Notes under the pieces: model-generated | Database searches by the model: none | What the model was told of the DNA's origin: nothing | The model's input: the letters and a program-made list of their open reading frames with translations, nothing else | Translations under genes and position numbers: made by a program | IMG/VR virus record: IMGVR_UViG_3300010224_000001 | Span: 192,001-256,000 of that record | Length of the DNA stretch: 64,000 bases | Source of the DNA: a virus | Direction: 5' to 3' (one strand) | In this document: positions 1-63,659 of the stretch, piece by piece | Position numbering within the stretch: the stretch's first letter is position 1 | How the letters are laid out: the number at the start of each line of letters is the position of its first letter

Positions 1-2
1 AA

Positions 3-434
3 CTCATCAAACAAAGTATTCCAAGCGCGAAGCGTGTCAACAGGAGGATGACTCCACGCGCCACGATCACCACGGCCGCCATTGTTGGTACGACCATGCG
101 GTACAGCTTGCTCGATAGCCGATCGGATAGCAAACAGGTTGTCAGGAAGATCGCTAGCAGTCAGTGTAGTTTTAGCAGCCATCATGCCGCAGCCAATATC
201 CACACCTACCGCAGCTGGAATAATCGCACCTAACGTGGGAATCACACTACCGATGGTGGAGCCTTTGCCGACATGCACGTCCGGCATCACAGCGATGTGT
301 TTGTAGATGAACGGCATCTTAGCGATATTCGACAGCTGTACTTTGGCTTCTTCTTCGACCGGAACACCTTTAGTCCACATCTTGATCGGTTTGCTGCCTT
401 CGTTGTTCAGGACTTCGTAGTTGTCTTGAGACAT
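3..434 (-). CDS. rtcB: RNA-splicing/repair ligase RtcB, N-terminal part (runs off left edge)
   Basis: Not in ORF track; manual translation from ATG at 434: MSQDNYEVL...PIKMWTKGVPVEEEA...AVMPDVHVGKGSTIGSVIPT..AIIPAAVGVDIGCGM, with the RtcB PDxH and VGVDIGCG motifs. Confidence 0.95.
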   Translation of the reverse strand, partial: MSQDNYEVLNNEGSKPIKMWTKGVPVEEEAKVQLSNIAKMPFIYKHIAVMPDVHVGKGSTIGSVIPTLGAIIPAAVGVDIGCGMMAAKTTLTASDLPDNLFAIRSAIEQAVPHGRTNNGGRGDRGAWSHPPVDTLRAWNTLFDE

Positions 435-1399: not shown

Positions 1400-2539
1400 T
1401 TATTCAACAATCATGCGGGAATACTCTTCAACGATTTCCATGACTTGATCGAACTCTTCGCATTGCAACACATCGATAATGAAACGCAGACGTTGTTTAT
1501 TATCTTTCAAATGCCAATGGATAGCGTTCCAACCATGATCTTCAAGTGACTTATCCTTCACCTGAATGATGCAATGAAGTTGCAATGGATCTTGAATACC
1601 ATCCTCGTAGTCAAATGCAATAACTACTGGACAATCATCTGCTTTAAGGATGGCCTTGCCTTGTTCATATTCGACTTCGAATTGAACGATAAGCGAAGTC
1701 ATGTCCCCTTCGCCTTCGACATTTGAAGATACGAGATCGTACAGGAAATTCACGTCGAATTCCTTACGCCACTCTTCGTACTTGGTAATCTCTGCATCAA
1801 AGAGCTTTACGCCATCCCCATCGTAACCATACGCCGGAATACCGAAAGACGGTTCTTTACCCCAGTCGATGGTTTCAGGTTCGTACTTCTCACGCAGATG
1901 GAGAATCTTACGCTCCAACTCCGCAAAAGCCAAGGCTAGCATATATTCGCCTGAACTGATATCGAAGTCTACTGCTTTAGGCACGCCATCCATGCCAACA
2001 ATGCTAGCTTTCTTACCGTTTTCTGTGACGATAAAGTAACCTTGATCGCCAGCTAAAACGACAGTAGGATTCTTCAACATTTCTTCAATGTGACTATCCT
2101 CTTCCTTTTGCTTTGCCTCAATCTGTTTAAAACGCTCAACACACAAACTGATCACCTTTGCTTTATTCTCGATCGACGGTTTAGGCGCCATTGCGATCTC
2201 CGTTACAAACGCCTTTTCACGTTTTGCAAAAGGAGTAATTAGCATGCCAGCTTCACTCCACAGGGCCATGGGAATAAACTTCAGTGCTTGCTGAACGTAA
2301 GTGCTAAACTCACCATCGACAGTTGGATCGTATTTCTTTAGCGCTTCTTCCATTTCAGTGCGGTAGCATTCGAAATCTTTTACCAGGGTATCGAAGATAC
2401 CTTTCGGCAGCAGGATCGCATTGTTTTGCTCTTGTACAGAATCACTACCAGTAAGAAGCTTGGTGTCGCCTTCTGTTTCAATGTTGTAAGCAAACTTCAA
2501 GAAGTCTTCGAGAGTGATCGGATGCGATGTAGTATTCAT
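1400..2539 (-). CDS. hypothetical protein
   Basis: 379 aa ORF tiling with neighbours. Confidence 0.75.
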   Translation of the reverse strand: MNTTSHPITLEDFLKFAYNIETEGDTKLLTGSDSVQEQNNAILLPKGIFDTLVKDFECYRTEMEEALKKYDPTVDGEFSTYVQQALKFIPMALWSEAGMLITPFAKREKAFVTEIAMAPKPSIENKAKVISLCVERFKQIEAKQKEEDSHIEEMLKNPTVVLAGDQGYFIVTENGKKASIVGMDGVPKAVDFDISSGEYMLALAFAELERKILHLREKYEPETIDWGKEPSFGIPAYGYDGDGVKLFDAEITKYEEWRKEFDVNFLYDLVSSNVEGEGDMTSLIVQFEVEYEQGKAILKADDCPVVIAFDYEDGIQDPLQLHCIIQVKDKSLEDHGWNAIHWHLKDNKQRLRFIIDVLQCEEFDQVMEIVEEYSRMIVE

Positions 2540-3161: not shown

Positions 3162-4889
3162 TTAGCTGTAACGGTCAATGAGGTACTTGGTCTTGATACC
3201 ATTCGTGACGACATGGATTTCGTAACCGAGACCGCCGCCGGGATGGTTGTGAACAGCCAGACCACCGAACGGTTCCAGACCTTCCGGTTGCGGTTCCATC
3301 TTACCACTCGTGAAGAAGTTCTCCAGAGTGGAACGGATTTCATGCAAGTCGTTATGCACCCACGATGCAGCCAGCGGGATCTGTTGAAGACCTGTATCCT
3401 TGGCGCCTTCCAGAGCCATGATCAGCGTTACGTTATCGCCAGTAGCAGCGCCCGGTTCTTTCATTTCGTGCGGCACAACAACGATGGCATTAACCGGCAC
3501 CAGAGTGAACGGTTGCAGGTTCCATTGTTGAGCGAACGAGCCCTTATCGTAACGATAAGCAGCAAGCGGATTACGCGCATTCTCATCGTCCCAAGCCATC
3601 AGAGGCGCAGCTTCCGGATCAACCGAAGTCGATACCGTCATGAAATCCATCCGGCTTGCTGTGACACGAACAAACAGGTTATCAGCCGTAGCCAACACTT
3701 CCTGTTTGAAACGCACCCACGACATGATACCGCCGTCGATGGTAGTCGGCAGTTGCGAAGCAGTGACCTTTGGAGCCACATCTTCTTTGGTTTTCAGATG
3801 ACCGAACAGACCTTGCTTAGCTTCCTCTTTGGCTTCCTTGACTTCCTTCGGTTCCCACACTTTGTACACCATCTCTTCCAGTGTAGCGAAGCGGCGCTTC
3901 AAAGCAGAAGCCAGACCCAGAGCTTCAAAGACCTTTTCTGCACGCATTACATTACCTTGCGTCGGTGGCGTTTGAGCACGGCCTTTCGTCAGCGAATCCG
4001 TTTGTTCCTTCCAACGTTTCTTCGCCAGGTCAAAGCTCATACCTTTCTCGATACCCTTGATGAATTCACCCAGAACAGTCGAGCCGATGTGAGTGCGATC
4101 TTTGTAGAGAGTCGCGACAGCATGCCAGACCAGACGAGCTTTCTGACGACGATCCTTCATCTCGTATGCGGTCTTCTGGAATTCGATGAACCATTCGAGA
4201 GTCTCGATGTACTTCTTCTCGTGACGCATGTCGCGCTCGTTCTTGAAGTAAATCAGAACTTTCTTTACGGTTTCCGGATTGAGAGAGGCGTCTTCGAACT
4301 TCTCTTCGCCACCTTTCTCTTTAATGCGACGCTTAACGAAACCCAGCGCTTCACTCAGAATACGGTAGTCTTCACGCGATTCGGAGATAGCTTGACCAGG
4401 CGTCTTCGTCCTCGAGAATTGCGGAACAATGGCACGCTGAACTTGCAGGTGATTGAAGGTATTCAGTTCAATCTGACCCAGCGTCTCGAAGCGGCTATAC
4501 CACACAGCTTCGATGTTTGCTTTCTCGACCAGAGCTTTCATCGCCTCGAACGAAGCACGGAAGTACGGGTCAACTTTATCGACCGCCGACCACATGGCGG
4601 AGACCAGATTGAAAACGCCTTGTGCATCTTTCTCGATAAAGACCAGGCGACCATAGCGACGGATGAAGTCCAGGCAGCACGAGCAGGTATTACGCTTGGC
4701 TTGGTCGTCAGCGAAACCACTCAGGAAAGCTGCTTGAATTGCTTCGTCGGTTACGTCAGTCATGAAGATGTTGGAATTCTTCATGTTGACTTTGTTGAAG
4801 TTGGCTTCGATGATCTTCGACAGCACGACATAGCGACCGTCGAGTTCTTCTTTTGCTTGAATGTTCGGTTGTTGCAGTACAGTTTCCAT
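3162..4889 (-). CDS. conserved phage hypothetical protein with CSCC motif
   Basis: 575 aa, NTCSCCLDFIRRYG motif, phage-like codon usage. Confidence 0.8.
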   Translation of the reverse strand: METVLQQPNIQAKEELDGRYVVLSKIIEANFNKVNMKNSNIFMTDVTDEAIQAAFLSGFADDQAKRNTCSCCLDFIRRYGRLVFIEKDAQGVFNLVSAMWSAVDKVDPYFRASFEAMKALVEKANIEAVWYSRFETLGQIELNTFNHLQVQRAIVPQFSRTKTPGQAISESREDYRILSEALGFVKRRIKEKGGEEKFEDASLNPETVKKVLIYFKNERDMRHEKKYIETLEWFIEFQKTAYEMKDRRQKARLVWHAVATLYKDRTHIGSTVLGEFIKGIEKGMSFDLAKKRWKEQTDSLTKGRAQTPPTQGNVMRAEKVFEALGLASALKRRFATLEEMVYKVWEPKEVKEAKEEAKQGLFGHLKTKEDVAPKVTASQLPTTIDGGIMSWVRFKQEVLATADNLFVRVTASRMDFMTVSTSVDPEAAPLMAWDDENARNPLAAYRYDKGSFAQQWNLQPFTLVPVNAIVVVPHEMKEPGAATGDNVTLIMALEGAKDTGLQQIPLAASWVHNDLHEIRSTLENFFTSGKMEPQPEGLEPFGGLAVHNHPGGGLGYEIHVVTNGIKTKYLIDRYS

Positions 4890-7701: not shown

Positions 7702-8103
7702 TTATTCCCTTTCTTTACTAGTTTGGAAACGCTCCGGATATTGTTTAGCATAGCTATTATAGATAGCCAAACATTCCGCTTCCGTCGGACGACGAGGCGC
7801 ATCCCTTTCGAACAGCAGCCACATTGCTTGGGTGCGGCCACGTCGTTTATACCACTGCACCCAGAGTGTCATTGCTTCACCAACACCTGGAATTTGACAG
7901 ACGTTAATTGTCGAATAACGTTCATCGTTTTCCAAGTTCACCAGATGTACGTCACTGATATCTTCAAGTTCGGCAATATCACGAATCTTACCAACGGTAG
8001 CGCAGTTCCAGTTATCGGCATTGAAAAGCGCATCTTCGAAAGCACACTTGGGGTCAGTGCCGTTCCAGGGTTTACCGCGCTCAATACAAGCTTTGCATGG
8101 CAT
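7702..8103 (-). CDS. hypothetical protein (Cys-rich)
   Basis: CxxC N-terminus, WYKRRG motif. Confidence 0.65.
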   Translation of the reverse strand: MPCKACIERGKPWNGTDPKCAFEDALFNADNWNCATVGKIRDIAELEDISDVHLVNLENDERYSTINVCQIPGVGEAMTLWVQWYKRRGRTQAMWLLFERDAPRRPTEAECLAIYNSYAKQYPERFQTSKERE

Positions 8104-9347
8104 TATACTTCTCCTTTAAGTTCTCTAAGTAGTTTCTTAACAGCCGAAACACGAACAGCATGGATCGCGTCCTTAAGTTCTCGAACATTCGTCCTGGCTT
8201 TCTGCTGATACTTAACCGCCACGACACCTACTGCCACGCCGCGTGCGGCTGACATAGCTGTCCGGCAGTATTCGGCTTGTGGATAAGGACGATCTTTGAA
8301 CGACACCGTTCTACTAGCTCGACCTCGAGCATCGCACATTGCGGCATCAATGACTTTCAAGAAGCGTTCAGGACGGCGATAGATATCGCAACGTTCAAAC
8401 ATCTTCACCAAAGTAGCAACGCGAATGTCCATAGCCCTGTGAATGTTAAGATGCTCGCGAGAAGTCATTACGGCAATCTCCTCGCAATCCTTAGGAATAC
8501 GCATCCGTTCGCAAATAGCCTTAATCAACGGAACACCAGCTTCTTCATGACCGTGGTGACTTGGCCACTGATCTTCAGGTGTTACTCCTTTGCCAACATC
8601 ATGCATCAACACTGCAAAACGAGTTTCGAGATCATAACCCATTTCAGCAGCATAATTGAGAGAGAGTTCAATGTGTGCTCCTGTCCAAATCTCAGGATGA
8701 TGTTGTTCAGCTTGGGGCACATGCCAGAGTCGATCTAACTCTGGAAAGAAACCAGCCATCAAACCAAAAGCCGTCATCATGGTAAACATCCGTCCTGGTT
8801 TAACTTCCATCAAACCACGAGAAAATTCTTTCCAGATACGCTCCGGGTTAGCACCAACCAATCGATTCTCTAAGAACAACCTTCTCGATAACCAGAATGT
8901 GTCAGTGTCGATTTTAAAGTCAAGATATCGTGCATAGAACCTGCACAACCGAAACGTACGAATCGGGTCTTCTCTGAAGCTTTCTTCAGACACCATTCGC
9001 AGTACTTTGTTCTGAATGTCAGCGCGGCCGTTATGCGGGTCGATGTATTCACGGGTTTCCGGATCATACGCAATCGCATTAATCGTCAGATCACGCTTAG
9101 CCAGATCCTCTTCCAGTGTTACACTGGGATCGAAGGTGGCCACGCCGCCCTGACGTTCACGACGTGCTAGCGAATACTCTTCTTTTGTGAATGGATGCAG
9201 AAAGGTCGGGAAGTCTTTACCGACTTGAATGTAGCCGAGACTAATCATTACCTCAGCAGTAGTGCCTACTACGACCCAGTCTTTATCCTTGGGTGTAATT
9301 CCCATCAGCTGATCTCTTACAGCTCCACCTACTAAATAGACTTTCAT
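8103..9347 (-). CDS. cca: multifunctional CCA tRNA nucleotidyltransferase / HD phosphatase
   Basis: MKVYLVGGAVRD..KDKDWVV, EDLAKRDLTINAIA, EDPIR, ERIWKE, HHPE, LMHDVGKG HD motif. Confidence 0.95.
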   Translation of the reverse strand: MKVYLVGGAVRDQLMGITPKDKDWVVVGTTAEVMISLGYIQVGKDFPTFLHPFTKEEYSLARRERQGGVATFDPSVTLEEDLAKRDLTINAIAYDPETREYIDPHNGRADIQNKVLRMVSEESFREDPIRTFRLCRFYARYLDFKIDTDTFWLSRRLFLENRLVGANPERIWKEFSRGLMEVKPGRMFTMMTAFGLMAGFFPELDRLWHVPQAEQHHPEIWTGAHIELSLNYAAEMGYDLETRFAVLMHDVGKGVTPEDQWPSHHGHEEAGVPLIKAICERMRIPKDCEEIAVMTSREHLNIHRAMDIRVATLVKMFERCDIYRRPERFLKVIDAAMCDARGRASRTVSFKDRPYPQAEYCRTAMSAARGVAVGVVAVKYQQKARTNVRELKDAIHAVRVSAVKKLLRELKGEV

Positions 9348-9589
9348 TTACTCTTCCTTCTCTTTTGTCTCGCCATAAATGGCGTAAAGCCTAATACAAC
9401 AAAACTGAATGTCAGAATTACGGTTGATATCCAGTCTAGAACATCTTTCCAGTTATTGACATGCAAAGTGTGATATCGCAAATACTCTTGCCAGACCACG
9501 CCATTTAGCGTGATCAGCAGAGCAAGCCAGATAAACGCCACAAGAGTTACAACAACGGAACATACCGCATTTACTATTTTGTTTAACAT
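9344..9589 (-). CDS. small membrane protein
   Basis: Two TM-like segments, basic C-terminus. Confidence 0.55.
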   Translation of the reverse strand: MLNKIVNAVCSVVVTLVAFIWLALLITLNGVVWQEYLRYHTLHVNNWKDVLDWISTVILTFSFVVLGFTPFMARQKRRKSK

Positions 9590-34118: not shown

Positions 34119-34700
34119 TTACGCTGCCTCCAATTGTTCAGGGATTGCTTTTGCTTCTTGCTTTTCTTGCGCAAGAGTCTGCATCATCTTGATCCGTTCC
34201 AGTGTTTCAAACGGATAGCTCTGCATGTTCTTTTCAATGACGCGCTCGTAATAGTTCTTGACTTCGAAGTTAACATGCTTGAGTTCGAGCAAGTTAAGCT
34301 TATCAGTCAGAAGACTCGTAACGTTCAGAGCTTCAGTAACGTCGTCAAGTTCCATCATACGGAGAATGAATTCACCCGTCAGATGTACCCGGACCATCAT
34401 CGCACCCAAACGGTCCAAACCTGCCGAGAATACTTCTTCCAATTCAGGATTGTATTCGTAGTAGTGCTGAGCAATGTAAAGACCCATGATGATGCGATAG
34501 TGCACAAACATCCAGTCTTTCATATCAGCTTCGCGCGCCCCGAGTTTTACCAGGCAGCTAATTGCATGCTGCGCTTGCCGAGCTTTCTCACGTTGCTCAG
34601 GTGTCGCTGTCTCCACTACTAACGGCTCGCGATGAACCGGTTTAGGGCTCATCACTTTTGCTTTTGTAGTTGGTTTTCGTTTCGATTTGCTTGTCGGCAT
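34119..34700 (-). CDS. hypothetical protein
   Basis: Start probably MPTSKSK; downstream of promoter at 34833. Confidence 0.6.
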   Translation of the reverse strand: MPTSKSKRKPTTKAKVMSPKPVHREPLVVETATPEQREKARQAQHAISCLVKLGAREADMKDWMFVHYRIIMGLYIAQHYYEYNPELEEVFSAGLDRLGAMMVRVHLTGEFILRMMELDDVTEALNVTSLLTDKLNLLELKHVNFEVKNYYERVIEKNMQSYPFETLERIKMMQTLAQEKQEAKAIPEQLEAA

Positions 34701-34832
34701 AGTTTCTTTTGATTGAGAGTTTACTTGTTTATTATTAAACAACGAATAGACATGCTTCGCCTACCTTAAAATAAGAGTGAAGAATCTTTTTTTGCTTCTA
34801 CATCAAGATTCATCTTCCTCTTACTCAAGGTA

Positions 34833-34850
34833 GTAATATATGCCCAATTT
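34833..34850 (-). promoter_or_regulatory. putative early promoter (exact TATATTAC)
   Basis: Minus strand AAATTGGGCATATATTAC. Confidence 0.55.
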
Positions 34851-34934
34851 ATTTTACAAACATAGAAAAAAAAAGAAGACTACGCCACAACTCTACTACG
34901 CTTTTAAGGGCGTAGTAGAGCGTGGTGAAGTTAA

Positions 34935-35327
34935 TTAAACTTCAAGTGGTGTTGTGCTGTGAATGATGGTGGCAATGCTCCAGGTCTGCGAGTTGATATT
35001 GCGTTCCAATTCTTCGTAAGCATCTTGCGGCACTTTACCACGTACGTTCGCCAGGTACTGATGAGCGACTTCAGCGGTAGGACGTGCACCGTTCGATGTG
35101 GCAAACACGTTGGTTTCTTTCACGTGCGGGTATTGCGAGACTTCTTGATTCGTTTCAATGTCCACGACATAGGCTTCCCAGTTAACGGATGCTTTCTGCG
35201 CGACTACCGTTACTGCGGGCACGTTCACGAGTTGGCCCGAACGATCGGACCAGATACGACGGCGAACCACAGGTGCAGCAAACAGAGCGGGGTTGATAGC
35301 AGTAGCATACGAAGCATGTACGTTCAT
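34935..35327 (-). CDS. hypothetical protein
   Basis: 130 aa, GAGGA RBS, long hairpin terminator at 34891-34920. Confidence 0.7.
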   Translation of the reverse strand: MNVHASYATAINPALFAAPVVRRRIWSDRSGQLVNVPAVTVVAQKASVNWEAYVVDIETNQEVSQYPHVKETNVFATSNGARPTAEVAHQYLANVRGKVPQDAYEELERNINSQTWSIATIIHSTTPLEV

Positions 35328-41870: not shown

Positions 41871-42008
41871 TGGTCGGGCGTTCTTGGAATCGAACCAAGG
41901 ACCTTCGTCTTGTGGTGAGGTTCCCCTCTGGCCGATCGCCTAAGCGGTCGCATCCGCCGAAGCGAATGGAATATTGGACGATGCTCTACCGAACTGAGCT
42001 AAACCCCG
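41871..42008 (-). ncRNA. tRNA-scaffold RNA 0: tRNA body with 67-nt three-hairpin insert replacing the anticodon loop
   Basis: CGGGGTT-TA-GCTC..GAGC-A-TCGTC[insert 41910-41976]GACGA-AGGTC-CTTGG-TTCGATT-CCAAG-AAC(G)CCCG-A-CCA. Confidence 0.85.
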
Positions 42009-42016
42009 TAAGTCTT

Positions 42017-42691
42017 TCAACCTTTTGCTACTAGTGTAAACTCAACAGGTTTGCCATCTGGTAAGAATACACTCTCAGCGTAGGTGAACATGTAAAACTT
42101 GTCAGCAGGATCCCATTTCTCATCATCCATTTTGTACATTGCAAACACTAACTCGTGAGTAATGTGTAAACAACGATTGGCTAACTTGGAGAACTCAGCA
42201 CTGACAATGATGTTACCGTAGGAGTAAGTAGTACCTTTATCCCACGAGAACGACATTGGCTTTTCTGGAGCATAACTCCATTTATCACCAGGCTTGGCTT
42301 TCTTGTATCGTTCAGTTATACCAGCGTCTTGCTGACCTGGATTAATTTTGAAACCACGATACAGCAATGGATGATTCGGAGGACGTTGAATCGATTCAAA
42401 GACTTTTTTAGCTTCTCGAAGTTTATCTAAGAGACTGTAATCAGTAACAGACACCCACTGATCAACAGCTTGAAGAAGTTCTTTGTGCTGCAACATCTTT
42501 TCAACGATCTTCATGTCTACATCTTCTTTCTGGAATGCCAGTTGAGGCGTGTATCCAAAAAGTTTTATTAAGCGCATCAGAATTTTCTTCTTCCACTCAG
42601 CTTCTTTGTAGACTTCGTTGAAGTTTGCTTCTTTCTCTAGACTGACAGAATTATCTGTAATCCAGTCTATATAAACAGGTTTAGTCGTCAT
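42017..42691 (-). CDS. putative ADP-ribosyltransferase (R-S-E clade-like)
   Basis: LLYRG...PMSFSW...YAESVF pattern; motif-level only. Confidence 0.45.
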   Translation of the reverse strand: MTTKPVYIDWITDNSVSLEKEANFNEVYKEAEWKKKILMRLIKLFGYTPQLAFQKEDVDMKIVEKMLQHKELLQAVDQWVSVTDYSLLDKLREAKKVFESIQRPPNHPLLYRGFKINPGQQDAGITERYKKAKPGDKWSYAPEKPMSFSWDKGTTYSYGNIIVSAEFSKLANRCLHITHELVFAMYKMDDEKWDPADKFYMFTYAESVFLPDGKPVEFTLVAKG

Positions 42692-42752
42692 GGTTTACCG
42701 TTACAAATGAGGGTGATAATCATAGTAATTGGTGAGACTAAACCTGTTGAAT

Positions 42753-42917
42753 TGGTGGGACGTTCCTAGATTTGAACTAGGGACCTCGATCTAGTTTAGA
42801 TGGAACCTGATTAGGGTTCTGCCTTTAACCACTCGGCCATACCTCCTAACGGAGATAGAGGGATTCGAACCCTCGGATCTTTGGTTGATCGCGCTCTAAC
42901 CGCTGAGCTAAACTCCC
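42753..42917 (-). ncRNA. tRNA-scaffold RNA A: outer tRNA with nested class II tRNA permuted in its variable arm
   Basis: GGGAGTT..CGATC[95 nt]GATCG-AGGTC-CCTAG-TTCAAAT-CTAGG-AAC(G)TCCC-A-CCA. Confidence 0.9.
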
Positions 42918-42938
42918 GGATACTTCTACTACAATGTT

Positions 42939-43110
42939 TGGTGGAGCGATGCAAGATTCGAACTTGCGACCTCTGTCTAAGCTTTGACTAGCAGGATTGT
43001 GCTCTAACCATCTGAGCTACTAACGGACGTTGACACCCGTTAGATCGGACTTGAACCGATGACCCCAATCGTGAATAAGACAGCGTTCTACCTGACTGAA
43101 CTAATCCCCC
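42939..43110 (-). ncRNA. tRNA-scaffold RNA B: outer tRNA with nested anticodon-permuted tRNA
   Basis: GGGGGAT..CTGTC[101 nt]GACAG-AGGTC-GCAAG-TTCGAAT-CTTGC-ATC(G)CTCC-A-CCA. Confidence 0.9.
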
Positions 43111-43128
43111 ATGTACTACTTTGAAACT

Positions 43129-43288
43129 TGGTGGAGCGATCTAGGAATCGAACCTAGGACCTCTGCCTGAGTCGAATGCTCTACCAGCTGAGCTACCGAT
43201 AAGTAACGAAGTGTTACCTACCGAGCGGGACTCGAACCCGCGACCCGTCGATTAGAATGGCAGCGCTCTATCACTGAGCTAATCCCCC
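43129..43288 (-). ncRNA. tRNA-scaffold RNA C: outer tRNA with nested anticodon-permuted tRNA
   Basis: GGGGGAT..CTGCC[91 nt]GGCAG-AGGTC-CTAGG-TTCGATT-CCTAG-ATC(G)CTCC-A-CCA. Confidence 0.9.
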
Positions 43289-43307
43289 GCAAACTGCTTT
43301 GTGAAAC

Positions 43308-43437
43308 TGGTAGGGCGCTTCTGGATTTTAACCAGAGACCTCCGTCTAGTTAACCAATAACCACACCCCCGTTGGGAGGTACGGCTGGACTTGAACCAGC
43401 GATTTGACGGCGCTCTAACAGGCTGAGCTAAGCCCCT
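43308..43437 (-). ncRNA. tRNA-scaffold RNA D: outer tRNA with minimal permuted T-arm/acceptor/D-like insert
   Basis: AGGGGCT..CCGTC[59 nt]GACGG-AGGTC-TCTGG-TTAAAAT-CCAGA-AGC(G)CCCT-A-CCA. Confidence 0.85.
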
Positions 43438-43446
43438 AATGAAACT

Positions 43447-43617
43447 TTACTTAAGAACACACATTAAAGTGATGCTCTGCTTTTTATCACTGTTAGCAAT
43501 CTTCGCATTCTTAGTAGCTTCGATGCATTGCTCCCAGCTTTGCATCGGAAACTCTTTCTGATCTATACTCCAACCATCGGAATGGATCCAGATAAGAAAT
43601 ACTGCTAATGCCTTCAT
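43447..43617 (-). CDS. small hypothetical protein
   Basis: Manual 56 aa ORF MKALAVFLIWIH..SWEQCIEA..LMCVLK. Confidence 0.55.
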   Translation of the reverse strand: MKALAVFLIWIHSDGWSIDQKEFPMQSWEQCIEATKNAKIANSDKKQSITLMCVLK

Positions 43618-43638
43618 GTCAATGATCTTTCTATTCGT

Positions 43639-43894
43639 TAGTGGAGAGATTGCGGGAGTTCAACCCGCGACTTTGATGGAACCCTAAAGCTGCAGCACTT
43701 GGTTTAGTTAAAGGTGAGTTACGATAATTTACCGCACTTGACCACCCAAAGCTTATGCATAAAACCCAAACTGTAAGAAAACCATGAAAGAAAACTTACA
43801 GAGGTTTTATAGAAGGTAACCTACAAACTTTAGAAGTATAATCTGCACCGAAGCCTTCCGCCAAGAAGGAGTCTTGCTTCTCGACTATCTCTCC
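43639..43894 (-). ncRNA. 256-nt structured RNA closed by tRNA-like acceptor stem and T-arm (tmRNA-like ends)
   Basis: 5' GGAGAGAT pairs with 3' ATCTCTCC-A-CTA; T-arm GCGGG-TTGAACT-CCCGC; internal long helices. Confidence 0.7.
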
Positions 43895-43947
43895 CAAGAG
43901 AACTTAATCTCTTGCACATTATGGGAAGTACGTGTAATTTTTTACTT

Positions 43948-44403
43948 TTAGACAACTATTTGACCGATAGCGATCCGTTGCTTGGTCTTAGCTAAACGAG
44001 GTCCAAAGTGGTTGAGCCATTTTACAGTAGCTATGCGAAGGTGACGTGTTCGGCATTCTTCGTTATACTCACCTTTAAAAGCTGCTTCTTGGTAAGTATT
44101 ACGAATAGTCCAAACGTTGTGTTTCCACACCTCCACAGTAAAGCTACCGAGCTGACTTAACTCAAGAGCAAGTTCATACGAGCACTCGAAAGCAATATAG
44201 AAACCGTAAGGATGACCTTCACAAGAGAAACGGGTTTTAGCACCGAGTTCTTCTAGTGCCAAGATGAAGAAATTCACACCTGGTTCCAGCGTTGAAACTG
44301 GATATGTAATCTCTACACTTTCAAAGCCGCGCTCAAGCTTAAGTTTACAAGCTTGATCCCAGGGATGTTCTGACATAATCGCCGGACCATTAATGAATGA
44401 CAT
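43948..44403 (-). CDS. hypothetical protein
   Basis: TRFSCEGHP motif. Confidence 0.65.
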   Translation of the reverse strand: MSFINGPAIMSEHPWDQACKLKLERGFESVEITYPVSTLEPGVNFFILALEELGAKTRFSCEGHPYGFYIAFECSYELALELSQLGSFTVEVWKHNVWTIRNTYQEAAFKGEYNEECRTRHLRIATVKWLNHFGPRLAKTKQRIAIGQIVV

Positions 44404-44816
44404 TATTTCACCTTGACTTTATCGAAACACTCATGAAGATCCTGGGAAGAACGACCACTTTCCCAATCGATGATAAGCCAGCGTTCACCATTACGATGTT
44501 CTCGGATATATTTCTCCACTACTTTACCAGGCGTATTGATCGCGGAGATAAGTTCCAGACCTTCGCAGATTTTTTCATACGGCATCTGGGACAATGGTTT
44601 GCCTGAATAGTCGGTTGTTTCAACCACGACGATATCTGCGCAATCGCCTTCGTTATGGCGTGTCCACTTACCGTTATCCCAATCTACGTGAATCTCTTTA
44701 GCTTGAGTAGTAAAGCGAACAATGCCTTCTTCTTTCTCTGCATTGGCTACTCGTAAATCGGTCGTGATTTGAGCGATAGGGATTTCCGACAATTTCTTAC
44801 CTACAAGTTGTTCCAT
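44403..44816 (-). CDS. hypothetical protein with internal two-fold repeat
   Basis: GKKLSEIP..VDWDNG and GKPLSQMP..IDWESG. Confidence 0.65.
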   Translation of the reverse strand: MEQLVGKKLSEIPIAQITTDLRVANAEKEEGIVRFTTQAKEIHVDWDNGKWTRHNEGDCADIVVVETTDYSGKPLSQMPYEKICEGLELISAINTPGKVVEKYIREHRNGERWLIIDWESGRSSQDLHECFDKVKVK

Positions 44817-45118
44817 TTTTTCTTCTCTCTTATAAAGGCAACAGTGTTTTGAGTTTTTGATATAGGAATGGATTGCTACGGCAAGCTATGTTAATCGCTC
44901 GTGCTGCATCTTGTTCATTCATTTGACTCAGCAGTTGGGACAATTGGTTGAACTGTTGTTCTTCTGTTGAGGGGATTAATTCGTTACTTGCCATGTTCTA
45001 TTCCCGGTTGGAATGATGAACGATAAAGCTCGTTCGTTTTCAGATCTACATTAACACAAAAAAACTAGATTACGAACATAAAAAAACAGAGAGACCTTTC
45101 AGTCTCTCTGTATTGTTT

Positions 45119-54813: not shown

Positions 54814-54909
54814 TCCTTCATCACGACGTCATAATACCCAGACCATTGCGGGTCTGGGTATTTTTATTACGCCACACTGAATTAAAGAACGAGATAACAA
54901 GGGTTATAG

Positions 54910-54991
54910 TGCCGGGAACGGGACTCGAACCCGTAAGCCTTGCGGCGGCGGATTTTAAATCCGCTCCCTTTACCAATTTGAGCACCCCGGC
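54910..54991 (-). tRNA. tRNA-Leu(TAA), CCA not encoded
   Basis: GCGGA-TT-TAA-AA-TCCGC, long variable arm, A73 followed by CTA. Confidence 0.9.
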
Positions 54992-61632: not shown

Positions 61633-61763
61633 CTTACGGCTGCTGCGTATGTGCGGGACTTTCACCCCACCTCCGAGAGAATCCGCCGATCAGAGCAGAA
61701 GCCTCCAAAAGATTTACGACCCTCGACGTACTGATCATAGTCCGAGTCTGACGCAGCCGTAAG
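61633..61763 (-). ncRNA. candidate structured ncRNA with T-loop hairpin
   Basis: 11-bp terminal helix CTTACGGCTGC/GCAGCCGTAAG; GTGGG-GTGAAAGT-CCCGC. Confidence 0.5.
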
Positions 61764-61786
61764 CAATCTCAATAGAAAGTGCTTTA

Positions 61787-61899
61787 TGAGAGCGACGGCA
61801 TTTCACCGTCGAGTTACACTGGATGATCGGTCCAATATGTAACCCCCGCCTTAGACCCCCCGATAGAAATCTTAGCTTGGCAATCATAAAACACTCTCA
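61787..61899 (-). ncRNA. candidate tRNA-like ncRNA (7-bp acceptor + 5-bp T-arm)
   Basis: TGAGAGT/GCTCTCA stacked on GACGG-TGAAATG-CCGTC. Confidence 0.5.
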
Positions 61900-61904
61900 A
61901 AAGA

Positions 61905-62334
61905 ACTAGGAAGAAACCGCCTGGCCTGGTTGCCCTTAACCTCAGCGATTCCTTCCTGTCCCCCGAATCAAACAGCACCCAACCGCAATAAGCGGAAGTA
62001 ATGCGATTCAACTCTAATAACACTGTCTATTCCTCTTTGTCTGGCCTGACTCCAAGCAATATCAGCGGCTGCTCATCTCTTAAGGCTACTTTCCATCGCA
62101 AGCAGGACGTTACCTTACTCGAATTTACTAATAGGCAGAAGAGACTACAACTTGCTGTAGATCCCTCTTATTCTGTTGACAGCAGAATAATGGTTCGTTA
62201 ACAGCCATACAGTTTAAGCATCGGTGTCAACGATGCTACCTAGGGACGAAACCCTAAAAGTCTCCACTAAGGTAAGACCAGTCTTACCGCTAGATTCAAC
62301 TCAGCCACCACTGTTAGGAAGCTGTACTGGTAAC
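61905..62334 (-). ncRNA. candidate large multi-hairpin ncRNA
   Basis: At least six perfect or near-perfect hairpins, no credible ORF. Confidence 0.45.
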
Positions 62335-63494: not shown

Positions 63495-63564
63495 TATTGA
63501 CCTTTCGTTAATACGTCATAAAGCCAGAAGGTTTCCCTTCTGGACTTTACTTTTCTAACTGGAA

Positions 63565-63651
63565 CGGAAGCGGTGGGATTCGAACCCACGGATGGTTTAA
63601 CCCACCGGCAGTTTTCAAGACTGCTGCCTTAAACCCCTCGGCCACGCTTCC
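63565..63651 (-). tRNA. tRNA-Ser(TGA), CCA not directly encoded (G-TT-CCA)
   Basis: GCAGT-CT-TGA-AA-ACTGC, long variable arm, G73. Confidence 0.95.
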
Positions 63652-63659
63652 ATTGATCT

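Follow-up and report, generated by a model that had tools for sequence, protein, structure and literature searches.

A candidate gene for a tRNA-capped, non-decoding RNA at the head of the tRNA gene cluster of a jumbo phage

Our analysis of a 64,000-nucleotide (nt) stretch of viral DNA (the window; bases 192001 to 256000 of a 322,570-bp virus record) revealed a 256-nt locus on the minus strand that we hold, with middling confidence, to be the gene for a non-decoding, stable RNA carrying a tRNA-like cap. The preliminary description had listed a new tRNA-capped noncoding RNA among its readings; that reading fits all of our observations, although the RNA has a precedent in T4 rnaC and is therefore not an entirely new kind of molecule. 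The 256-nt RNA could not be placed in any described family. The record ends in direct terminal repeats, and the phage encodes the beta subunit of a multisubunit RNA polymerase (phrog_3148), the nearest named relatives of which are those of Burkholderia phage FLC9 (47.8% identity) and Ralstonia phage RP12 (42.5% identity). Judged from these relatives, the phage is phiKZ-like, i.e., a jumbo phage of the nucleus-forming type.

The RNA gene lies inside a 330-nt gap (43618-43947) in which neither strand carries an ORF of at least 50 aa. Its borders, both coding on the minus strand, are a gene for 151 aa at 43948-44403 and an ORF of 56 aa at 43447-43617. Nine tRNAs called by ARAGORN and three tRNA-like genes that bear inserts share the strand of the 256-nt RNA; downstream on the minus strand, several long-insert tRNA-like genes come before the canonical tRNAs. 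The RNA stands at the head of this same-strand cluster of tRNA and tRNA-like genes, in keeping with the earlier observation that it heads a cluster. CCA is encoded in 11 of the 15 listed tRNA or tRNA-like genes of this phage. Genes for a CCA-adding enzyme and for RtcB are present as well, and a search of the phage genome for Ro/TROVE proteins (PF05731) returned no match. The features of the locus, together with two further genes, are as follows, in window positions; RNA index (idx) denotes 43895 minus the window position.

43639..43894, minus strand: 256-nt RNA gene (idx 1-256; MFE -80.4 kcal/mol, z -3.72)
43887..43894, minus strand: terminal helix, acceptor-like 5' strand, GGAGAGAU (idx 1-8)
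43643..43650, minus strand: terminal helix, 3' strand, AUCUCUCC (idx 245-252)
43652..43668, minus strand: T-arm, GCGGG-UUGAACU-CCCGC (idx 227-243)
43639..43642, minus strand: A-CUA tail, in place of A-CCA
43860..43885, minus strand: 9-bp hairpin at the D-arm position, GUCGAGAAG/CUUCUUGGC (idx 10-35)
43846..43855, minus strand: basal helix of the cargo domain, 5' strand (idx 40-49)
43669..43678, minus strand: basal helix, 3' strand, abutting the T-arm (idx 217-226)
43680..43837, minus strand: cargo core (idx 58-215), with hairpins at idx 85-136, 148-184 and 188-198 within a long-range helix
43895..43914, minus strand: leader hairpin, CAAGAGA-UUAAGU-UCUCUUG, abutting G1
43934..43946, minus strand: AT-rich promoter-like motif, AGTAAAAAATTAC, just past the stop codon of the upstream 151-aa gene
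43948..44403, minus strand: upstream gene for a conserved 151-aa protein with invariant S60 C61 E62 G63 H64 P65
8103..9347, minus strand: CCA-adding enzyme of the phage (Pfam PolyA_pol, 4.8e-20; HD, 1e-08; PolyA_pol_RNAbd, 3e-08)
54909-54991: tRNA-Leu(UAA) gene of the same phage, the gene end of which is A-CUA

All of the sequence features described previously were recovered on the minus strand, reading from 43894 to 43639. More specifically, idx 1-8 pairs with idx 245-252 in a terminal helix of eight Watson-Crick pairs (pairing probability 0.90-1.0), and A244 (43651) is left unpaired as a spacer or bulge between this helix and the T-arm. The T-arm itself is perfect, with a 5-bp stem and the loop UUGAACU (probability 1.0); it retains U54, U55, A57 and A58, whereas position 56 (loop position 3), where C is usual, is occupied by G. 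This T-arm may resemble that of enterobacterial tmRNA. The cap is non-canonical, in that its helix has 8 bp, an A is bulged and T-loop position 56 is G. Pair 3:70 is A-U (A3-U250), in agreement with the reported lack of G3-U70, and the gene does end in A-CUA as first noted, with no encoded CCA; the mature body probably ends at A253 (43642), ahead of CCA addition. As had also been remarked, there is no evident tag ORF: all three frames lack an ending that resembles a tag, and the nearest candidate, a frame at idx 89-142, is hydrophobic and ends FYA.

Between the two arms of the cap lies an interior of ~215 nt, composed of the 9-bp hairpin and a branched domain of ~185 nt. UCGA, noted earlier as following soon after the 5' strand, occupies idx 11-14. 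The hairpin at idx 10-35 is folded equally well by 2.85% of shuffles. An alternative for idx 9-41 combines a weak D-like stem of 3 bp with a second stem of 5 bp that closes a 6-nt loop, and this arrangement is 5.8 kcal/mol worse than the 9-bp hairpin. The statement that the RNA has no D-stem holds insofar as the 9-bp hairpin is preferred, but must be softened in that the weak 3-bp stem can be drawn. Judged as a tRNA chassis, the RNA has a non-canonical acceptor and T-arm, and a D-arm of at most 3 bp that is outcompeted by the 9-bp hairpin. The basal helix of the branched domain (idx 40-49 with 217-226) is part of the MFE fold, but its probability is only ~0.45 and it is not in the centroid. 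Likewise, the long-range helix of the preliminary description is present in the MFE fold (idx 58-74 with 198-215) and missing from the centroid, and the long hairpin at idx 85-136 (43759-43810) has a probability of 0.82-1.0. Thus, the terminal helix, T-arm, 9-bp hairpin and long hairpin are the elements that are near-certain in the ensemble.

Upstream of the RNA, the 5' arm of the leader hairpin permits a second register, in which it pairs with idx 244-250 directly on the T-stem (pattern match at 43645-43912) and leaves idx 251-253 reading CCA; the MFE fold of the extended transcript retains the first register (idx 1-8 with 245-252). Part of the AT-rich motif, AGTAAAAA..TAC, can be aligned to sequence heading the tRNA clusters of two other phages, RP12 (Ralstonia) and FLC9 (Burkholderia). 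Early promoters of jumbo phages are described, in the portion of PMC7598289 that we consulted, as AT-rich motifs of roughly 10 nt near -10, and by analogy the motif at 43934-43946 fits that description. We also considered TAAAAAATTAC as a genome-wide promoter consensus and rejected it, since 14 sites with at most one mismatch were counted versus 11.0 in shuffles, i.e., no enrichment.

The structural pattern alone would not stand out. For an 8-bp helix with an adjoining perfect T-arm, dinucleotide shuffling of the 64-kb window (100 shuffles) gives an expectation of 0.05 occurrences per window, a frequency that is not rare in a large scan, and in GC-regressed folding 14 of 996 minus-strand windows of 256 nt match or beat the 256-nt RNA. 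The RNA rises above chance because its strand, its position at the head of the cluster, its lack of coding potential and the strain data combine. For the latter, near-identical strains were available as contigs from four runs belonging to three studies; these contigs are short, and parts of the stretch are uncovered in some runs. The comparison yielded four variable sites in the 256-nt RNA versus eight in the 206 nt upstream. Two of the four fall in the 9-bp hairpin and keep it (G>A at idx 13, converting G.U to A-U; C>U at idx 35, converting G-C to G.U), and the other two fall in the basal helix, where C>U at idx 220 converts G-C to G.U and A>G at idx 221 turns a C/A mismatch into C-G. All four substitutions are compatible with the predicted structure, one of them creating a pair. 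This agreement argues only weakly for the fold, because by a rough estimate ~70% of random transitions would be compatible, such that chance alone would give four out of four in about a quarter of cases.

We sought diverged homologs of the RNA in IMG/VR, JGI metagenomes, GTDB species genomes, FLC9, RP12 and T4, and found none. Consequently, only near-identical strains could be compared and no true covariation was obtained, so that the proposed covariation check came down to the four substitutions described above. Megablast of positions 43000-45000 against phages gave no match, and distant blastn with the RNA gave only chance 52-nt matches to Thermus phages (E=3). R1, a covariance model built from the single sequence of the 256-nt RNA, matched nothing outside the target in its own genome, FLC9, RP12, T4 or the five nearest IMG/VR relatives, the latter being fragments that are 9-48% complete. 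Searches with short strings were similarly sparse. An exact 29-mer had no match in IMG/VR, a 17-mer matched 16 stretches there, of which only three (on contigs L023, L025 and L036) were RNA-like and the others chance-like and mostly coding, and a degenerate T-arm pattern added seven stretches, none of them RNA-like. In JGI metagenomes, a 19-mer matched 14 stretches, comprising two from the same phage lineage, four from an odd tRNA-Gly(GCC)-like gene and eight that were chance-like. Among 185,579 species genomes, the 19-nt T-arm string occurred at nine places, none of which was a tRNA or tmRNA; on this sequence evidence, the string was not recently copied from a host gene within this set of species representatives. 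We likewise rejected the idea that the locus is an attP-like copy of the 3' end of host ssrA, as the two ends of the RNA pair together, the record has terminal repeats, and the string was found in no tmRNA of the species genomes.

The three RNA-like stretches disclosed a short end module that the target shares with another RNA. This second RNA, of 123-152 nt, was found on the three contigs just named (62-112 kb), which belong to an AT-rich phage lineage; two of the contigs are 94-95% complete, and the lineage (~111 kb) is unrelated to the jumbo phage. No tRNA genes were found in either of its two near-complete records. Common to both RNAs is a 20-nt run that covers the T-arm and the next three bases, followed in the 123-152-nt RNA by the partner strand of a 6-bp helix and then by an A-CUA tail, as in the target. 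In the consensus fold of the smaller RNA, the terminal helix shows G-C, G.U and U.G variants, and a hairpin of variable length (with one compensatory pair) comes right after the 5' strand; two further hairpins, the T-arm and an AA spacer complete it. It occupies an intergenic site and has a promoter-like element of its own. The 17-mer hit about a dozen independent lineages, and we estimate that the agreement beyond it in this lineage, i.e., the three extra bases, the distance to the tail, the 5' partner and the intergenic location, is very unlikely to have arisen by chance. For this reason, the end module looks to be selected in its own right. From here it is a longer step, and one that we consider doubtful, to propose that the target and the RNA of the ~111-kb lineage form a new class of phage RNA, the end module of which is kept for a protein that reads it. 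The signature of such a class would be the G56 T-arm, an A or AA spacer, a 6-8-bp helix and the A-CUA tail, and the variable interior would carry the phage-specific function. The reader would be either a host tRNA-targeting defence nuclease that is decoyed by the module, or a member of the maturation and modification set of the phage, for which the candidates would be the CCA-adding enzyme, RtcB and the adjacent, weakly TYW3-like protein.

The reading of the target as a tRNA-capped stable RNA in its own right has its closest known parallel in rnaC (species 1 RNA) of T4, which by analogy would be the same kind of molecule but not of the same family. T4 rnaC (NC_000866, 70908-71046) is a 139-nt locus annotated as a small stable RNA, species 1, and its fold has a perfect T-arm adjoining a terminal helix with hairpins between (z -4.57). 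Both RNAs lie within a phage tRNA gene cluster and on the tRNA strand, in both the 5' and 3' ends form a terminal helix on which a T-arm near the 3' end stacks, and both carry hairpin cargo instead of the D and anticodon arms, with no anticodon. They differ in that the T-loop of T4 rnaC is the canonical UUCGAAU and its T-stem joins the terminal helix without a spacer, whereas the target, at 256 nt, combines an 8-bp helix and a bulged A with G in the third position of the loop, ends in A-CUA, and has a branched cargo domain of ~185 nt inserted just ahead of its T-arm; moreover, a search of the T4 locus (L098) with R1 returned nothing at E<=10. To our knowledge, neither the T4 species 1 and 2 RNAs nor the other "extra" stable RNAs of phage tRNA clusters have been assigned a function. 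Rfam gave no match at E<=0.01 for T4 rnaC or rnaD. According to the part of PMC2330249 that we consulted, T4 species 1 RNA comes from a precursor of ~1.75 kb that is common to eight T4 tRNAs. A further RNA of this general build occurs in the tRNA cluster of FLC9 (172 nt; 12-bp terminal helix plus T-arm, z -3.89). In the portions of the published literature covered by our search, RNAs of this kind were not found described beyond T4 species I and II.

Two other comparisons help to delimit the RNA. The insert-bearing tRNA-like neighbours (41875-43437) share its strand and cluster, and like it combine tRNA-like ends with a non-tRNA interior. They have canonical D-arms, 7-bp acceptors, 5-nt variable loops, C56 and an encoded CCA, however, and their inserts lie in the anticodon loop as opposed to the variable-arm position in the target. 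Bacterial Y RNA (YrlA; RF02553) is likewise a non-decoding RNA with a tRNA-like element, but its model had no match on the 256-nt RNA and hit two of the neighbours instead (42970-43083 and 43178-43245; 34 and 32.6 bits, cut-off 69). On the sequence features, the target is therefore set apart from its neighbours and from T4 rnaC by its non-canonical cap, its variable-arm cargo, its size and the shared end module.

Since a tRNA-like domain made from two ends also characterizes tmRNA, the preliminary description had suggested a derived tmRNA or an SmpB decoy. The likeness is genuine as far as it goes: both have the acceptor helix and T-arm without a canonical D-arm, a long helix departs just 5' of the T-arm in the manner of helix 2 of tmRNA, and the only relevant Rfam match at E<=10 is to tmRNA (RF00023). 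Phage-encoded tmRNAs are, in addition, reported in the consulted portions of genome announcements. That match, however, reaches 12.9 bits over 37 nt (43651-43687) against a gathering score of 47 and covers only the T-arm and the 3' strand; at gathering scores, Rfam found nothing on the 256-nt RNA. ARAGORN -m called no tmRNA in the 322,570 bp at default thresholds, and relaxed thresholds gave only noise. The target is shorter than tmRNA, no pseudoknots were called in it, and it lacks both a tag-like frame and an encoded CCA. The A-U pair at 3:70 denies it alanine identity, G occupies T-loop position 3, and the 9-bp hairpin takes the place of the D-loop analogue that SmpB would contact. No SmpB gene (PF01668) was detected in the phage, whereas 10 control genomes were positive, and none of the nine species-genome places of the T-arm string is a tRNA or tmRNA. 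We thus judge it highly improbable that the RNA is a divergent tmRNA, or that it acts as a decoy for SmpB or other trans-translation factors by titrating them, and nothing specific speaks for the SmpB decoy.

Closer to an ordinary tRNA would be a class II-like derivative with a giant variable arm (~185 nt) and a real elbow, that is, a chargeable but non-decoding mimic that could be charged by a synthetase which ignores the anticodon. Counting from G1, we infer that U8, A14, G15, G18, A20/21 and C226 (position 48) fall at tRNA tertiary places and that C19 could pair with the unusual G56. The discriminator is A, FLC9 and RP12 have class II-like tRNA derivatives with aberrant anticodon arms, and once idx 42-221 are deleted, ARAGORN reports a cloverleaf at -ps90. 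Yet ARAGORN made no tRNA call on the target at default thresholds, even with introns allowed, and the tRNA model RF00005 had no match on it at E<=10 (cut-off 29 bits). When idx 9-41 were shuffled, 150 of 2000 constructs were still called (p ~0.075). The cloverleaf lies 5.8 kcal/mol above the 9-bp hairpin, with an ensemble probability of about zero, and its would-be anticodon loop has 6 nt and not 7. The module-sharing RNA of the unrelated lineage also has a long hairpin, and no D-arm, after its acceptor strand. We thus prefer the 9-bp hairpin and treat the cloverleaf as its rival, given that the latter appears only at -ps90, survives shuffling in 150 of 2000 cases and is energetically worse; overall, we find the class II-like mimic quite unlikely. 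Unlikely, too, in our estimation, is that there is no discrete functional RNA at the locus, but a decayed tRNA-like relic or a structured 5' leader of the tRNA-cluster transcript. Such an origin would suit the failure to find diverged homologs or a paralog, the 0.05 occurrences per window expected of the pattern alone, the low-complexity GAGA/UCUC arms of the leader hairpin and terminal helix with their two pairing registers, and the GAGA/UCUC-rich hairpins that lie behind the shared AT-rich motif in both RP12 and FLC9. Decay sits poorly, however, with a perfect T-arm and helices that are all intact, and with variable sites that are fewer than in the flank and all structure-compatible. It also leaves aside that an unrelated phage retains the unusual 3' module, as the end of another, separate small RNA, and that 330 nt are kept free of ORFs in a gene-dense phage.

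For the favoured tRNA-capped stable RNA, we propose the following course of events. By analogy with other tRNA clusters, transcription would begin where the tRNA and tRNA-like cluster starts, the AT-rich motif (43934-43946) being the promoter. The two ends of the RNA would then fold so that the acceptor-like helix stacks on the T-arm, reproducing the "top half" of a tRNA. As for a tRNA precursor, RNase P would cut at G1 (43894), a 3' nuclease would trim the A-CUA tail to the discriminator A253, and the phage's own CCA-adding enzyme would finish the 3' end. That RNase P and the CCA-adding enzyme recognize this cap is an assumption, because the cap is non-canonical. A route from CUA to CCA must nevertheless exist in this phage, given that its tRNA-Leu(UAA) gene also ends in A-CUA. 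The cap would serve for excision and end protection, and the working part would be the interior of ~215 nt, most likely acting by protein binding and not by base-pairing or decoding. An antisense role of the sRNA type on phage mRNAs was considered and set aside, as the phage genome contains a single 14-nt complement versus ~0.6 estimated by chance; with no antisense target beyond chance in the phage genome, protein binding becomes the likeliest role.

The locus would represent an unusually large example of the unexplained stable RNAs of phage tRNA clusters, located in a jumbo phage that has its own CCA-adding enzyme and RtcB. What is new is the short tRNA-mimic end module, common to the target and an unrelated phage without tRNA genes. 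Should a host or phage protein use the module as a handle for recognition, the module could be used as bait to identify the binding partners of these RNAs, and natural tRNA scaffolds of this type could inform the design of RNA expression.

The proteins encoded next to the RNA were also examined. No relative was found for the neighbouring 224-aa protein. The 151-aa protein encoded just upstream has 37 homologs, in which the S-C-E-G-H-P stretch is invariant. Searched alone, it had no relative in IMG/VR; a 23-member alignment of the family led to 19 distant IMG/VR loci, none with a tRNA within 3 kb. Its closer relatives (P0002-P0005; 74-55% identity) come from Logan assemblies. Pfam assigned it to no family, and none of the 23 family members had a relevant hit; a sequence profile search of the PDB gave nothing below E 0.07, and Foldseek with the predicted model gave nothing at E<=0.001. 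The model has a pLDDT of 87.7, and its best four VIA rows are TYW3-family proteins (Z 5.5-4.6), which points to a weak resemblance of the modelled 151-aa protein to the TYW3 fold.

Three tRNA genes of the phage cluster carry an insert in the anticodon loop, as detected with ARAGORN with introns allowed, and a complete gene for an RtcB RNA ligase (PF01139, 432 bits) is encoded on the same strand:

Window 41875-42008 (-): tRNA gene with a 60-nt insert in the anticodon loop
Window 42943-43110 (-): tRNA gene with a 94-nt insert in the anticodon loop
Window 43133-43288 (-): tRNA gene with an 84-nt insert in the anticodon loop
Genome 191211-192338 (-), overlapping window 1-338: RtcB RNA ligase gene

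Two of these three inserts gave matches to the Y RNA-like family YrlA (34 bits at window 42970-43083 and 32.6 bits at 43178-43245, both below the 69-bit cut-off), indicating that both hold a T-arm, a closed acceptor stem and a D-arm in permuted order. Together, the permuted tRNA inserts and the phage RtcB ligase raise the possibility, on sequence grounds, that the inserts could be excised and circularised. A search of the phage for Ro/TROVE turned up no such gene.

Nested or insert-bearing tRNA-like genes are also present in Burkholderia phage FLC9 (L049 1100-3340, -) and Ralstonia phage RP12 (L050 1540-2560, -), with RF00005 matches of 113 and 108 nt among them. Moreover, beneath a CDS annotated as hypothetical (gp119), FLC9 carries an RNA of 172 nt whose 12-bp terminal helix is joined by a T-arm. 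Each of the three related phages has a hairpin of GAGA/UCUC runs 3' of a common AT-rich upstream motif, which may represent a conserved leader element:

Window 43895-43914 (-): GAGA/UCUC hairpin, target phage
L049 ~3230-3295 (-): GAGA/UCUC hairpin, FLC9
L050 ~2455-2505 (-): GAGA/UCUC hairpin, RP12

The end module of the target RNA recurs elsewhere. A phage lineage that is AT-rich and lacks tRNA genes encodes a tRNA-capped RNA of 123-152 nt whose T-arm is that of the target, as are its AA spacer and its A-CUA tail:

L023:8041-8163 (+): tRNA-capped RNA
L025:2825-2960 (+): tRNA-capped RNA
L036:3009-3160 (-): tRNA-capped RNA

In L023, this RNA is followed by ~1.3 kb lacking any ORF of at least 60 aa (7954-9456). 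The T-arm of the target, with its G56, also occurs in an odd tRNA-Gly(GCC)-like gene of four JGI metagenome contigs (L059-L062, one of 1.18 Mb), whose D-loop lacks GG and which has other tRNA-like pieces around it. Within the phage cluster itself, the tRNA-Leu(UAA) gene (window 54909-54991, -) ends in A-CUA rather than A-CCA, as does the target RNA, and an encoded CCA is also missing from tRNA-Ser (63564-63652); most of the other tRNA genes in the cluster do encode it.

Upstream of the target RNA lies a conserved protein gene:

Window 43948-44403 (-): conserved 151-aa protein

The best four VIA matches of its confident structural model were all TYW3-family structures, yet with Z scores of just 5.5-4.6, and Pfam gave no support for this likeness. 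TYW3 belongs to the tRNA wybutosine pathway.

Genome-wide, TTATGACGT occurs in 26 copies (8.4x expectation), most of them intergenic and immediately 3' of a GC-rich hairpin:

Window 38438, 41491, 48510, 51460, 52188, 53540, 54834, 60777, 63521: TTATGACGT sites

From its sequence, this arrangement looks like a terminator and promoter signal in one. A TATG core has been reported for phiKZ late promoters, and TTATGACGT contains it.

Two other stretches of the window fold very strongly, namely 34689-34944, the second-ranked stretch when folding was scanned across the window, and 61740-62030 (-; MFE -112.1 kcal/mol, z -5.52), the predicted fold of which suggests that it may be an additional non-coding RNA.
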